Origin: a bacterium
GTDB taxonomy: Bacteria > JAHJDO01
Assembly (NCBI GenBank): GCA_030652805.1
Contig: JAUSPT010000032.1
Span: forward strand, 109,992 to 173,991
Direction of reading: 5' to 3'
DNA: 64,000 nt
In this document: positions 14,166 to 17,698 of the stretch, piece by piece
Position numbering within the stretch: the stretch's first letter is position 1
How the letters are laid out: each line of letters starts with the position of its first letter
The notes under the pieces: model-generated
Database searches by the model: none
What the model was told of the DNA's origin: nothing
Seen by the model: the letters and a program-made list of their open reading frames with translations, nothing else
Translations under genes and position numbers: made by a program

Positions 14166-14610
14166 AACCTGTGGTCTCTTTATTGGTTAAAGTATAAACT
14201 TCGCCATCTGCGCCTGATAAATGTATTGTTAATTCATCAGCTCTTCCATCTTGATAAAATACTGCATACGGTTTAGCACACTCCAGAAGTATGTTGGTGG
14301 AGAACCTCCTTTTTCTACCAAGCTTGTTATTTAGTGCAATAAATTTTTCTGGATTTAAGGGGTCTTTTGCTACACTGACCCAGTATTCTTTATTATTAAC
14401 ATCAAAATCTATCCTGTGAATTACCTGCTCCATAATTGCTCTCTCCTGCACATACTTAGTGAGCTTCGATATATCCCGACACAGGTTCCTAACCTGCAAA
14501 TTATCAAAAGTATGTCTAAACAAAGGAGTAGATATTGCTGTAAGGATACTGAGTATGCTAATAACTAGAATCAACTCAATAAAGGTAAACCCTTTCTCCC
14601 GCATCTTCAT
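14131..14610 (-). CDS. minor pseudopilin (GspH-like)
   Basis: MKMREKGFTFIELILVISILSILTAI prepilin leader and hydrophobic helix; start chosen at MKMREKG. Confidence 0.6.
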   Translation of the reverse strand: MKMREKGFTFIELILVISILSILTAISTPLFRHTFDNLQVRNLCRDISKLTKYVQERAIMEQVIHRIDFDVNNKEYWVSVAKDPLNPEKFIALNNKLGRKRRFSTNILLECAKPYAVFYQDGRADELTIHLSGADGEVYTLTNKETTGYVKIFKGFSSF

Positions 14611-15039
14611 TCGTTTGACGCACTCTCTTCCCAATTAGTAATATCATCCCCTCCGCCAACTACTCCGTCCGGTCCACAGGAGAAGAGGTCATAATCATCG
14701 CCATGCTCTCCAGGACACTTGTACTGATATGAACTACCCCATGGATCCGCTGGCATTTTTTTCTTAATATAAGGTCCCTTCCATGTCTCAAGCTCTGAAG
14801 GTTTCTCACGTAATGCATTAAGCCCCTCTTCAGACGTAGGATATCTACCATTATCCAGTTCAAATAGCTCCAAGGCTACTGCAATATTTGCTTCAATATC
14901 TGCCTTCGCCGCTATAATCTTTGCCTGTTTGGACCTGCCTGCAAACCTTGGAGCCACCATTGCAATAAGCACACCAATAATAATAACAACAAGCATAAGC
15001 TCTATCAGAGTGAAACCATGTATTTTCTGTGCTAGGATT
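14607..15039 (-). CDS. major pseudopilin GspG/PulG-like (5' end/start codon anomalous)
   Basis: GFTLIELMLVVIIIGVLIAMVAPRF… plus a GspG-like C-terminal region (DPWGSSYQY…). There is no in-frame ATG/GTG/TTG within about 20 codons upstream of the Gly codon (15016-15018). A leader of canonical length would begin at ATC 15037-15039. Confidence 0.65.
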
Positions 15040-15092
15040 GAAGAACGAAAACGATAAACAGGTAATTTAACCTTAAAACAGGAGGAAAAGGA

Positions 15093-16181
15093 ATGGATAC
15101 AATTACGTATGCTGGTGTGGATCTTCATAAAGATTCGATGACTATTGCTGTAACTAATTCTCTTTCTAACGACCCTTACAACGAAGCGAAGATTACTAAA
15201 ATTCACTGTAAATGCGTTAACAAAGTCTCTGCCTTTTTTGCTGATCTTCCTCATCCATGTACAGTTGCTGTTGAGGCTGTTGGCTTCTACCACTGGTTCT
15301 GGGATCTGGTCAGTCCTCTTGCCTCTGATATCTATCTCCTGAATGCTGTTGAAGTCAGACGTTACGCAGGCAGGGACCCTAAGACTGACTCCAGAGATGC
15401 CAGACTTATTGCGCGGCTTCTTGCTTCCAACGAAATTACTCATAATAGCAAGCTCTCTGTCTTTGTCCCCGACAATAACCTCAGACCTATCAGAGAACTT
15501 GCTCGCCATCGTCATCAAACTGCCCGTTCCCTTGCTTGCTCTAAAAATAGATTCAGACGTATCACTCTCAAAGAAAACCTTCCAGGACCAAAAACTCTTG
15601 ACGCTCATCATGCTCTTCGCTGGATCAGAGGCTTTGAAAACAAAACTTCTGATATCCATAAATTTCAGCTTAGACAGCTTACTGATCAAATAATTTCTTT
15701 TGAAAGAGATGTATCTGATATTGAAAGACAAATCCTTGACCTTACTAATAAAGCTGGTTATCAACCTCTTATGAAACTCCTTCAAACAATCCCAGGTATT
15801 GGTGATGTAGTTGCGTATACTATTATTGCAGAGATCGGCGATTTCTCCAGATTTCAAACTGCTGGACAAATCGCCTCTTTTGCAGGTCTTACTCCCAGAG
15901 TCTTTCAAAGTGGTGATTCCTGCAGGCATGGCAGTATTAATAAACAAGGACCTCCTAATCTTAGATGGGTTCTTCAGCAATCTGCATGGGTGGCTATTAG
16001 ACACAGCGAATTTATTAGAAAAATATTTAATAAAATTAGCAGGAAAGCCGGTAAGAAAAAGGCCGCTTGCGCTATTGCCAGAAAAATTCTTGTCTGGAGC
16101 TGGGCTATGGCTAAGAACAATACGGCTTTTAATAAAGACTTTATTAATAAAGATAAAGAAAAAACGGAAAGGGCAGCTTAA
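15093..16181 (+). CDS. IS110-family transposase (DEDD-type)
   Basis: 362 aa; N-terminal GVDLHKDS…AVEAVG and the hallmark C-terminal IPGIGDVVAYTIIAEIGDFSRFQTAGQIASFAGLTPRVFQSGDS; AGGAGG RBS at 15081-15087. Confidence 0.85.
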   Translation: MDTITYAGVDLHKDSMTIAVTNSLSNDPYNEAKITKIHCKCVNKVSAFFADLPHPCTVAVEAVGFYHWFWDLVSPLASDIYLLNAVEVRRYAGRDPKTDSRDARLIARLLASNEITHNSKLSVFVPDNNLRPIRELARHRHQTARSLACSKNRFRRITLKENLPGPKTLDAHHALRWIRGFENKTSDIHKFQLRQLTDQIISFERDVSDIERQILDLTNKAGYQPLMKLLQTIPGIGDVVAYTIIAEIGDFSRFQTAGQIASFAGLTPRVFQSGDSCRHGSINKQGPPNLRWVLQQSAWVAIRHSEFIRKIFNKISRKAGKKKAACAIARKILVWSWAMAKNNTAFNKDFINKDKEKTERAA

Positions 16182-16480
16182 TAATGAAAATATTTCATAC
16201 TCTCTAGGATTACACCTGCAGCAGTGACCTTGAATTCGTTTATGAGTAAAAGGCTCAAGCCGTAAAGCTCGATAGCGTGAATAAGGCCTGCTGCAGGCGT
16301 ATTTGTTCTCGTGCGGCTCTTGACCGCGAATAGTTGATTGCGACCTTTGAGAGGTTTTGAGAATATGAAATACTACATTAAAAAGCTGTGAAATTGTTAT
16401 GTGAAAGTTTTTAAATACGCATAGAAAATCATAGTTAAACCCTTTTTTTGACATTTGAACTTTGATTTTTGACATTTATT
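16182..16480 (+). ncRNA. candidate structured non-coding RNA at IS 3' end (bridge-RNA-like, as described for IS110/IS1111 elements)
   Basis: GC-enriched relative to surroundings. A perfect 10-bp long-range stem pairs CCTGCAGCAG (16216-16225) with CTGCTGCAGG (16289-16298) around a 63-nt loop. No ORF of any length is present. Confidence 0.3.
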
Positions 16481-16486
16481 TTCCTC

Positions 16487-17698
16487 CTAGTGTATTAAAA
16501 TATTTATTTGAAATATTGGTAAAAGCATACTTATTACTATAAACCCTACAATAGACCCCATAATAAGGATCATTGCAGGTTCCAGTAATGAAGTTAAGGT
16601 CTTTGTTGCTCTATCAACCTGGCGAGCATATGTATCAGATATTTTCAATAAAGACTTCTCTAATGCCCCACCTTCCTCTCCAACAGCAATCATGTTTGTT
16701 GCAAAAACAGGAATCCACAGTCCTCTCCCAAGGCTGGCTGCAAGTTTATTGCCTTCTGAGACATCTTTAGCAGCTCTTTCTATCTCTCCGGATATAGCCC
16801 TATTAGTAATAGTATTCTTTACTATGTTCAGAGACTGCAGAATCGGTACTCCATTTTCAAGTAGGGTTGCAAGAGTTCTAGAAAAACGGCTTACTTCAAC
16901 CTTTTGAATAAGCTTACCGACCAGAGGAATTGCAAGCTTCCACCTGTCAATTACGAGACCTCCTTCTTTTGTATTCTTTAACCGTTTAAAAAGAATTATA
17001 ATTAGGAATATAACCGCGACGGGCACCCACCAGAATTCAACAATGAAATTACTTGAAGACACTAAAATCTGGGTTGGTAAAGGCAGTCTTTGTCCCATAT
17101 CTTCAAACATAACCACCAATTTAGGAATTACAAATGTCAAAAGCACTATAATCGTGCCTATTCCGGCAAAAAACATAAGTATAGGATAGGTGAGAGCCGC
17201 TTTTATCTTTGATTTTATTTCCTCTTCGCTCTCATAAAAATCCGCAAGTCTCAATAGAACGCTCTCTAATATCCCCCCTGTCTCGCCGGAAGCAACCATA
17301 TTAACATAAAGTGGAGAAAAGAGCTTTGGATATTGATCTAAGGATTCAGATAAGCTCTTGCCATCCTTAATATCAGTGTATATTTCATCCAGAACGGCGC
17401 TGAGAAGCGTATTGTCTGCTTGTTTAGATAATATGGCTATCGATTCTAAGAGAGGAACCCCAGCATCCAATAAATCTGATAATTGTCTGGTGAATAAACT
17501 AATATGCTTTAAACCGATACGCTGAAAAATTCCAAGGCTGGACTTAAAGCCTTTTTTCTCTTTACCTGCACCTATAGACAAGACAAAATAGCCCATTTTA
17601 TCCAGTCTGCTTAATGCAATGTCCTGATTTTCTGCTTCAATGACTCCTGATATTATTTTTTTAGGACCATGTTTCGCTTTGTATGAGAAAACAGGCAT
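16487..17698 (-). CDS. type II secretion / type IV pilus platform protein GspF/PilC family
   Basis: 403 aa; two T2SS-F repeats and three TM segments. Confidence 0.85.
   Translation of the reverse strand: MPVFSYKAKHGPKKIISGVIEAENQDIALSRLDKMGYFVLSIGAGKEKKGFKSSLGIFQRIGLKHISLFTRQLSDLLDAGVPLLESIAILSKQADNTLLSAVLDEIYTDIKDGKSLSESLDQYPKLFSPLYVNMVASGETGGILESVLLRLADFYESEEEIKSKIKAALTYPILMFFAGIGTIIVLLTFVIPKLVVMFEDMGQRLPLPTQILVSSSNFIVEFWWVPVAVIFLIIILFKRLKNTKEGGLVIDRWKLAIPLVGKLIQKVEVSRFSRTLATLLENGVPILQSLNIVKNTITNRAISGEIERAAKDVSEGNKLAASLGRGLWIPVFATNMIAVGEEGGALEKSLLKISDTYARQVDRATKTLTSLLEPAMILIMGSIVGFIVISMLLPIFQINILIH

Follow-up and report, generated by a model that had tools for sequence, protein, structure and literature searches.

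Introduction

The Piv invertase acts inside type IV pilin genes, near their conserved N-terminal coding region, inverting a fixed segment and swapping pilin variants, and IS492 works as an on/off switch at the eps locus through gene disruption and has not been reported to be translated through. Here we describe an insertion sequence (IS) of the IS110 family that lies within gspG, the major pseudopilin gene of a minus-strand secretion operon, in a 64,000-nucleotide stretch of bacterial DNA (GenBank assembly GCA_030652805.1, contig JAUSPT010000032.1, positions 109,992 to 173,991; hereafter the window, from whose first letter all coordinates are counted). Piv, from Moraxella, is related to the IS110 and IS1111 family transposases (PMC11187229), and the inversion of the Moraxella type 4 pilin gene is the subject of an entry in the reference list of PMC11208160. 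Elements of the IS1111 group have a longer non-coding region downstream of the transposase gene, a guide RNA in the right end and subterminal repeats (PMC11187229, PMC11208160). Prepilin leaders, for their part, are hydrophilic, of variable length and cytoplasmic; their last residue is Gly or Ala, and cleavage by prepilin peptidase takes place at the cytoplasmic face (review PMC10191384).

The best explanation overall of the locus, and in our view a probable one, is that an RNA-guided element of the IS1111 type sits within gspG, is free of stop codons in the sense of the pilin gene, and would be read through, its product being cut off as a leader. It belongs to a large, previously undescribed clade of RNA-guided elements that are directed to the site of prepilin cleavage and look as if made for read-through. 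A preliminary description of the window had recognised a plus-strand IS110-family transposase in the minus-strand secretion operon, which Pfam domains and the operon annotation bear out, and had seen, correctly, that the element breaks the operon at the major pseudopilin gene's 5′ end; its observation is partly confirmed by the present analysis and its interpretation, as a whole, partly supported.

Position and ends of the element

The element and the two parts of the gene that it separates were placed as follows.

15012–16436, plus strand: complete IS of the IS110 family, IS1111 type, 1425 bp (3 × 475)
15012–15092, plus strand: left end of the IS, 81 nt, carrying the Shine–Dalgarno sequence (SD) of the transposase gene; its minus strand encodes ...SSILAQKIH-G-F
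15018–15032, plus strand: left subterminal inverted repeat ATGTATTTTCTGTGC, found by eye and conserved in locus L003
15093–16181, plus strand: transposase/recombinase gene, 362 aa, containing IPGIGDVVAYTIIAEIGDFSRF
16182–16436, plus strand: right non-coding end, 255 nt, carrying the guide non-coding RNA (ncRNA)
16419–16432, plus strand: right subterminal inverted repeat GCATAGAAAATCAT, found by eye; reverse complement ATGATTTTCTATGC
14607–15011, minus strand: target-derived remainder of gspG, from Thr(+2) to the stop, with the mature coding sequence intact (PF08334, 3e-35)
16437–16475, minus strand: native gspG start and leader to Phe(+1), MSKIKVQMSKKGF, from orthologue proteins and DNA alignment with loci L111–L113
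16482–16487, minus strand: native gspG SD, GGAGGA, overlapping the gspF stop TAG (16489–16487), with the same layout in L111–L113

The insertion splits gspG within the prepilin cleavage and methylation motif, after the Phe(+1) codon and before that of Thr(+2). Three uninterrupted loci (L111, L112 and L113) have gspG immediately after gspF and read ...atgtcaaaaaaagggttt|actctgattgag..., which is the window flank from 16437 upward and that from 15011 downward joined exactly; the empty-site junction across all three is ...AAAGGGTTT|ACTCTGAT..., again identical to the joined flanks. Alignment of the window with these empty sites showed no target-site duplication and a junction ambiguity of 1 nt (T on the plus strand). 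BLAST comparison with other copies of the element, in loci L006–L008 (92–94% identical) and L003–L005 (78–80%), gave a common stretch corresponding to window positions 15011–16439, beyond which the flanks diverge; six copies, each in another sequence context, have this stretch. The expected empty-site sequence is GGGTTTACTCTG and the expected circle junction CATAGTTGAAACCATG, i.e. CATAGTT|GAAACCATG (CATAGTT|GAAACC in the window).

When the leader is joined to FTLIEL... the reconstructed GspG matches uninterrupted GspG proteins of the same length at 89–90% identity, and the orthologue proteins P0126 and P0127 start MSNVKCQMSKKG|FTLIEL. The native leader has 13 codons, with its ATG at 16475–16473 and a second in-frame ATG at 16454–16452; the minus strand after the gspF stop reads TAGGAGGAAAATAA ATG TCA AAA ATC AAA GTT CAA ATG TCA AAA AAA GGG TTT, and the encoded MSKIKVQMSKKGF looks like a prepilin leader ending in Gly-Phe. 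The gspG remainder on the other side of the IS is 89–90% identical to uninterrupted orthologues and contains no frameshift and no stop. The leader-side Phe codon belongs to the target, being TTT or TTC depending on the target, and the IS carries Gly(−1)-Phe(+1) codons of its own (15017–15012), which rebuild G|F next to the target's TLIE. We assign the sequence CAT GGT TTC, next to ACT CTG ATA GAG, to the IS, since it is invariant among copies of unrelated left flank; CATGGTTTC is constant in such copies, one of which abuts another IS.

The subterminal repeats match at 13 of 14 positions with a 1-nt indel and stand back from the ends by 6 nt and 4 nt; owing to that indel, they were not listed by a gapless inverted-repeat search. 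A repeat search of the window found no second copy of the IS.

These boundaries change several points of the preliminary description. The element had been placed between gspF and the pseudopilin gene, yet it lies inside gspG, with the SD, ATG and leader on the far side of the IS, and the native start, whose removal or alteration had been one of the suggestions, now lies 1425 bp further upstream with its frame kept. The left end had been put within 54 nt of the transposase ATG, a misplacement of ~30 nt; it is at 15012, 81 nt away. The frame of KIHG|FTLIE does lack a nearby canonical start, with no ATG, GTG or TTG for 36 codons upstream and the first ATG at 15128–15126. The ATC codon suggested as a start does exist, though at 15038–15036 rather than 15037–15039; since the left end is at 15012, it and the whole LAQKIHGF stretch are IS sequence, and it has no SD and is unnecessary. 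The proposed comparison with uninterrupted orthologues defined the empty site and the ends and, far from reproducing a start-less gene, gave a normal start and leader, MSNVKCQMSKKG|FTLIEL. The other doubt raised, that the transposase region is a misassembly, is ruled out by a separate Logan assembly (SRR13727525) holding the same 1.7 kb at 100% identity, and by the same architecture in dozens of unrelated contigs.

Two other readings of the junction were considered. Treating the shared AAACC as a duplication gives a frameshifted gene (MSKKGFHSDR) and is ruled out by the copies and the empty sites, which place the crossover at T|R; a CC core is ruled out by L003 and L006, which have GC there. 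A 16-nt stretch within the transposase gene (15559–15574) is 81% complementary to the junction of target and left end at 15001–15016 (TCTATCAGAGTGAAAC / GTATCACTCTCAAAGA), which is probably chance. The gspG leader of L111 (~1670–1700), L112 and L113 consists of the heptamer (ATGTCAA)x4 followed by AAAAAGGG, encoding MSNVKCQMSKKG, and the window has a degenerate version of this repeat at 16440–16478 on the minus strand (MSKIKVQMSKKG); slippage at an ATG-bearing 7-nt repeat with an A7 run could change the frame or the start.

An open frame through the element

Reading from the native ATG into the element and out again, the minus strand is open throughout.

14607–16475, minus strand: single open frame of 622 aa, made up of the native leader, 475 IS-encoded codons and mature GspG

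Across the 1425-nt IS the pilin-sense frame has no stop codon, compared with 24 and 54 in the other two minus-strand frames (21 and 43 within the transposase region only). This frame is antisense to the transposase gene and aligned with its codons, so that TTA, CTA and TCA have to be avoided there; the window gene has none of the three, and CTT accounts for 22 of its 29 Leu codons. At the host usage found in 11 window genes, where TTA plus CTA make up 37% of Leu codons and TCA 24% of Ser codons, such an absence has a probability of ~2e-9. Nor does the 255-nt non-coding end contain a stop in the pilin-sense frame (mono-shuffle P = 0.004). All close copies, including those of 78–80% identity, keep the frame open, and a 42-nt indel between L003 and L004/L005 preserves it. 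The encoded insert has a net charge of +48 and no hydrophobic segment, the pilin helix being the only hydrophobic window in the 622-aa open reading frame (ORF). The 475-aa antisense polypeptide had no match among 5.8 billion proteins, so that such fusions cannot be viewed independently through public gene calls.

The 42-nt insertion, in the left end of L004 (~890–930) and L005 (~355–395), is a perfect hairpin (GCCCCGTTAGTTCCGAAATCTTTCGGAATCTAAACGGGGTA), a multiple of three in length and stop-free in the pilin frame; the transposases of these two loci are identical to that of L003, and both loci also have ATG for ATA just before HG|F.

Related loci, with transposases of 38–54% identity, came from metagenomes and metagenome-assembled genomes (MAGs) of Verrucomicrobiota, Omnitrophota, Ratteibacteria, Phycisphaerae, Lentisphaerae, Acidobacteria and others, and frame statistics were calculated on the 49 loci with both junctions mapped. 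The element is in frame in 40 of these (binomial P = 5e-12) and in 36 it is also stop-free, against 9–54 stops in the other frames. Lengths of the 36 stop-free elements range from 1404 to 1758 bp and take 22 different values, each divisible by three; for the mapped loci as a whole, 26 of the 34 distinct lengths are multiples of three (P = 3e-7). In the stop-free cases the frame is always codon-aligned to the transposase gene, which then has no TTA, CTA or TCA. Several of the out-of-frame elements keep a frame with only two or three stops, as if recently decayed. On this comparative evidence we think it very probable that translational transparency, meaning a length of 3n and no stop in the pilin-sense frame, is under selection.

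The fusion ORFs begin with the host leader followed by the IS (..GF|NYDFL.., ..GF|IYVARQ.. and ..GF|SYVG..) and end in ..KIH-GF|TLIE, ..KSNI-[G/A]F|TLIE or ..RPLH-GF|TLVE; the −1 residue of one side differs from that of the other, and hence the distal Gly/Ala-Phe is borne by the IS. Relatives without an open frame have, in the left end, a canonical SD with an ATG, followed by a short, basic leader that terminates in H-G|F, for example aaggaggtgcgatATG MNKKFSKSIFSKPHG|FTLIEL and gtgaggaggtagcgaATG MFKKNVSRSRSIVSQIQHG|FTLIEL. The read-through frame and the element's own SD, ATG and leader look like two devices that would both keep a cleavable prepilin expressed. In L092 (Omnitrophota MAG) and L095 (Ratteibacteria MAG), with GC contents of 0.37 and 0.41, the transposase genes have no TTA, CTA or TCA, yet their codons are out of alignment with the pilin frame, and the left end supplies an SD, ATG and leader of its own; these two may be recent converts from the read-through to the own-leader type.

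The prepilin motif as the target of the clade

The motif [G/A/S]FTL[I/V]EL was found on the minus strand, 49–400 nt left of the transposase start, in 79 of 98 related loci, and 11 of the 19 lacking it have a flank of <300 nt. Orientation is uniform in the clade, the transposase gene being antisense to a prepilin-type target gene. The relatives occupying this motif number ~80 and are 38–93% identical. The occupied genes encode diverse prepilin-type proteins, many of the ...LLPALSKAR...C.SNLKQ.G kind, and the right flanks encode leader remnants of the ..RRGF and ..RRAF types, such as MNSWRITRRGF, MRVQTRQAF and MIRNDCSRGF. Where the stop codon of the occupied gene was reached, 15 of 18 genes have a normal length (135–292 aa) and three are truncated.

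Each insertion recreates the site, and this gives rise to tandem arrays. A second related IS (IS-B; L006:1–1490; L008:1611–3099, also L008:1–189), of ~1489 bp with a 371-aa transposase and its own 3′ ncRNA match, occurs head-to-tail with the window-type element (IS-A) in both orders. L008 has the arrangement IS-B′ tail / IS-A / IS-B, and we take it to be a tandem array at one prepilin site and not a circle, because its two IS-B tails are only 92% alike; L010 adjoins the left end of another IS copy. The right flanks of L003, L004 and L005 are identical (leader remnant ..DRRAF, two small ORFs and a DeoR regulator) and their left flanks differ, with a LamG_3 prepilin gene in L003 and a DUF1559/SBP_bac_10 gene in L004 and L005, which suggests IS-mediated rearrangement between prepilin paralogues.

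The guide RNA

The right end of the element contains the following features.

16208–16360, plus strand: conserved structured ncRNA, bridge/seekRNA-like (covariance model R1)
16233–16242 (AAUUCGUUUA) and 16272–16281 (AUAGCGUGAA), plus strand: 5′ and 3′ strands of the candidate target loop
16329–16337 (AAUAGUUGA), plus strand: donor loop

The right ends of six close copies share a common fold with compensatory changes, e.g. CUGCAGCAG/CUGCUGCAG against CUGUGGCAG/CUGCCACAG, and a covariance model of 16208–16360 found, in ~80 related loci, a homologous RNA that directly follows the transposase gene on its 3′ side (E values from 1e-15 to 1e-2). In the resulting alignment (A6) 86.8% of cells are paired and 37 of 43 pairs are changed on both sides, counts that are inflated in favour of the structure by the fitting of the alignment to the model; covariation scored 0.51, compared with 0.18 for shuffles and at most 0.076 for slid controls. 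A scan of 14000–17500 against Rfam 15 found no bridge-RNA family and returned one chance snoRNA match (E = 0.73).

The 3′ strand of the target loop is nearly invariant, (A/U)(U/G)AGNGUGAA, and has the sense of the plus strand across the reverse complement of TTY-ACN-YT; it matches, with strong comparative support, the conserved pilin-sense Phe-Thr-Leu codons, with which it would pair. Guide G residues stand opposite the synonymous Y positions, where G–C and G·T both pair. The 5′ strand is variable and ends in ..G(G/C)NUUYA, which corresponds in sense to the −1 codon, the Phe codon and the A that follows; over 60 distinct element/flank pairs it scored 6.57 against its own leader-side flank and 5.76 in shuffled pairings, and none of 5000 shuffles attained the former value. 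Of the two guide segments, the one complementary to the top strand comes first, 5′ of its bottom-strand counterpart, and in the target they overlap.

In the second loop, AUAGNUGA, of the form AAUAG-N-UGA, in 58 of 58 loci the variable N changes together with the right end's penultimate base (TAGTT with GUUGA, TAGAT with GAUGA and TAGCT with GCUGA), which indicates that this loop reads the circle junction of right end and left end. A right-donor guide at 16352–16358 (GGUUUUG), pairing with TGAAACC through two wobbles, was also considered and was dropped as it has no support in L003. That the insertion site is set by an ncRNA from the right end is well supported by these correspondences.

The transposase

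The 362-aa protein matches PF01548 (DEDD_Tnp_IS110; residues 7–156, 1.5e-13) and PF02371 (Transposase_20; residues 228–309, 2.7e-28) and, over its C-terminal half, the IS621 transposase of PDB entry 8wt6 (E = 1e-19). In an alignment of 17 transposases D10, E61, D99 and D102 are invariant, as are G265, L266, P268, Q272 and S273 of the IS1111 motif GL-P----S(T)G, present here as G265-L-T-P-R-V-F-Q-S-G274. Membership of the IS110 family is shown by the DEDD and PF02371 domains together with the use of one site in one orientation and no target duplication, in the relatives likewise, and that of the IS1111 group by the short left end, the long 3′ non-coding region, subterminal inverted repeats of the 7–17 bp class and the C-terminal motif. 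All sequence-level tests for the IS110 family, the IS1111 group and a guide of the bridge/seekRNA type gave a positive result.

The host operon

The minus-strand operon, as given by the ORF list, has gspD, gspE and gspF followed by the pseudopilin genes.

19416–21314, minus strand: secretin
17701–19395, minus strand: gspE
16487–17698, minus strand: gspF (PF00482, 4.7e-68)
14607–..., 14131–14634, 13815–14165, 13258–13818 and 12255–13265, minus strand: pseudopilin series, after the gap
Downstream of the pseudopilin genes, minus strand: PilM/N-like gene, PilO-like gene, hisD and hisC

The gap between gspF and the pseudopilin series holds the plus-strand ORF 15093–16181. The ORF ending at 14607 contains the T2SSG domain (PF08334, 3e-35) and an N_methyl domain (PF07963) in Pfam, and it is identified as gspG by the T2SSG domain, the G|FTLIE methylation motif and its slot directly after gspF. 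The interrupted gene is the first of at least seven co-oriented genes in the window; its mature part and all genes downstream are intact. Three prepilin-type genes lie in the window, of which one is occupied by an IS.

Pseudopilin genes of the series overlap by 35 nt (14131–14634 and 13815–14165) and by 4 nt (13815–13818), which is consistent with translational coupling and with an operon sensitive to upstream termination. The PilM/PilN-like fusion ORF (10667–12265, minus strand) has an odd N-terminal extension of ~60 aa, rich in Lys and Ile (MKVKKSNSKHEAQNTKQYQITKIQMLKTMFRIFKIRILNLFRISIFEFRIY...), and its true start may lie further downstream.

Proposed mechanism and alternative explanations

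Ribosomes starting at the native ATG (16475) would translate through the IS, and such read-through would avoid premature termination and Rho-type polarity on gspH–K and the genes downstream. The preliminary description had foreseen polar effects on these genes; the operon is indeed interrupted, and the effect may be mitigated, as the host frame is open through the element. The product would be a prepilin with a basic, non-hydrophobic cytoplasmic 'leader' of ~488 residues, which fits the known topology of prepilins. Prepilin peptidase would then cut at the rebuilt H-G|F-T-L-I-E, removing the IS-encoded polypeptide and freeing a normal mature GspG, and the insertion would be largely silent. Actual processing to a functional pilin we propose only tentatively. 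Equally tentative is the wider suggestion that the clade has specialised on the boundary of leader and mature protein, where an insertion can be erased after translation, the ~1.4–1.8 kb of transposon being read by the host ribosome and acting as a giant leader cut by the host peptidase.

Several points weigh against this interpretation. We know of no natural leader near ~490 residues, the longest being of tens of residues, and both translation of the 622-aa ORF and acceptance of so long a leader by the peptidase are things that we infer; read-through translation would, moreover, run head-on against transposase expression, and the insertion could be recent and inactivating in this genome. Nine of the 49 mapped elements are out of frame and four in-frame ones have 16–34 stops, and the elements of L003–L005 (1429 and 1471 bp) are out of register with their own leader remnant. 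In GC-rich relatives the codon-aligned antisense frame is nearly stop-free by composition, and relatives with a non-aligned frame have only 1–3 TTA, CTA or TCA codons, so that the signal there rests on the non-coding ends and the length rule. As to the guide, besides the fitting of its alignment, the window's pairing with its target is short (5–7 nt on the leader side; six Watson–Crick pairs, one wobble and one mismatch on the mature side) and the exact core cannot be fixed, the window target (GT|AA) and donor (TT|GA) sharing only T.

The simplest alternative is an ordinary disruptive insertion that has knocked out gspG, leaving the secretion or pilus system defective or awaiting excision and the open frame inconsequential here. 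The gene is physically split, the mature part has no nearby SD and start, three of 18 occupied targets elsewhere are truncated and a leader of ~490 aa has no known precedent; however, a knockout would leave unexplained the 36 of 49 elements that are in frame and stop-free at 22 different lengths, an AT-rich transposase gene without TTA, CTA or TCA, the IS-borne Gly-Phe codons, and the SD, ATG and leader of other relatives, and gspG and the genes downstream are all intact. We regard it as rather unlikely. Translation across the IS might instead serve only to prevent Rho termination, the fusion protein being useless and degraded, and the open frame, the in-frame rule and the place of the target as first of at least seven co-oriented genes are in keeping with this; yet most targets of relatives resemble single DUF1559-type prepilin genes and not operon leaders, and anti-polarity alone needs neither a rebuilt G|F site nor an IS-borne SD, ATG and leader, so that this too seems improbable. 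A reversible switch, in which precise excision of a circle restores gspG in the manner of IS492, draws on the excision of the family as circles without duplication (PMC11208160) and on the exact restoration of GGGTTT|ACT that excision at T|R would give. It could coexist with read-through but leaves the constraints on frame and stop codons unexplained; the site is occupied in both assemblies, the window contig and SRR13727525, and we give the switch little credence.

The remaining alternatives invoke other starts or another use of the antisense frame. Expression of the mature part might begin at the ATC (15038–15036), at an internal ATG or from an IS-borne outward promoter, as the preliminary description had allowed.

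15126–15128, minus strand: first in-frame ATG upstream of G|F, 37 codons away; a possible but unsupported internal start

This ATG is kept in every close copy, and a start there would produce a leader of 38 aa with a final G; the left end of some relatives does encode a true SD, ATG and leader. Neither the ATC nor the ATG is preceded by an SD, however, ATC is not a recognised initiator in translation table 11, and the ATG is explained as a by-product, the antisense of an invariant His codon in the GVDLHK motif of the transposase; a promoter and terminator scan found promoter-like sites at background (8, with 6.0 ± 2.4 expected), leaving no outward promoter to stand out. Such an origin of the mature protein is very improbable. 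Finally, the frame might be conserved across the clade because it encodes a protein needed by the IS itself, which we find hardly credible: the antisense ORF lacks its own start, stays open in the non-coding ends as well, is joined in frame with unrelated leaders of the host on one side and with host pilins on the other, encodes a low-complexity, basic sequence with no database homologue, and is absent from several relatives.

Comparison with known systems

If the proposed mechanism is true, the element behaves like an intron or intein at the level of the protein, with a host signal peptidase doing the removal, and offers a third route to 'silent' residence in a gene beside RNA splicing and protein splicing. 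To our knowledge, no autonomous insertion sequence built for read-through translation has been described before, and full-text literature searches found no report that links IS110/IS1111 elements or bridge RNAs with prepilin genes, nor one of an autonomous IS that is translated through. The mechanism would explain the multiplication of these elements in phyla with hundreds of prepilin-type paralogues (the Planctomycetes–Verrucomicrobia–Chlamydiae (PVC) superphylum and Omnitrophota), and it makes a biochemical prediction about the leader length tolerated by prepilin peptidases. Natural bridge/seekRNA guides that can be tuned to a degenerate coding motif bear on the design of programmable recombinases, and, for annotation, 'start-less' pilin genes beside IS110 transposases may be intact split genes and not pseudogenes.

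The closest described elements are ISEc11, ISPa11 and ISKpn4, IS1111 elements with a seekRNA or bridge RNA (Siddiquee et al. 2024, PMC11187229; Durrant et al. 2024, PMC11208160). They have the same DEDD and PF02371 transposase with the GL-P----SG motif, the same short left and long right ends, subterminal repeats, lack of a duplication and ncRNA 3′ of the transposase gene, and the same order and overlap of guide segments in the target (PMC11187229). Their known targets are non-coding repeats (repetitive extragenic palindromic (REP) sequences, attC and Tn21-type inverted repeats), whereas the target of the present clade is a conserved protein-coding motif, and its guide places G opposite synonymous pyrimidines; to be stop-free and in frame in antisense, and to rebuild the interrupted codons, has not been described for the known members. 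New with respect to the described members, it appears, are the degenerate protein-coding target, a guide adapted to synonymous variation, and either an in-frame stop-free element or a leader of its own.

IS621, of the IS110 group, has a homologous recombinase and, likewise, target and donor loops that each read both sides of the crossover; it differs in having its RNA in the left end, a reversed guide order and a CT core, compared with a crossover at T|R with one shared base in the window. IS492, from Pseudoalteromonas atlantica and also of the IS110 family, resembles the present element in its site-specific insertion in a surface-structure locus and in the possibility of a precise, gene-restoring excision. 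Piv is the closest case within the same recombinase superfamily and has its sites in pilin genes, but, unlike the window IS, is not a mobile element. Rickettsia palindromic elements (RPEs), MITEs (miniature transposable elements with inverted repeats), IStrons, group II introns and inteins are likewise selfish DNA that spares the gene product. RPEs and MITEs, which can sit in frame within ORFs, are non-autonomous, however, of ~100–150 bp, and are kept in the mature protein, and introns and inteins remove themselves by RNA or protein splicing, whereas the window IS is a full autonomous element that would be translated in antisense, with a product removable by a host peptidase as a leader.

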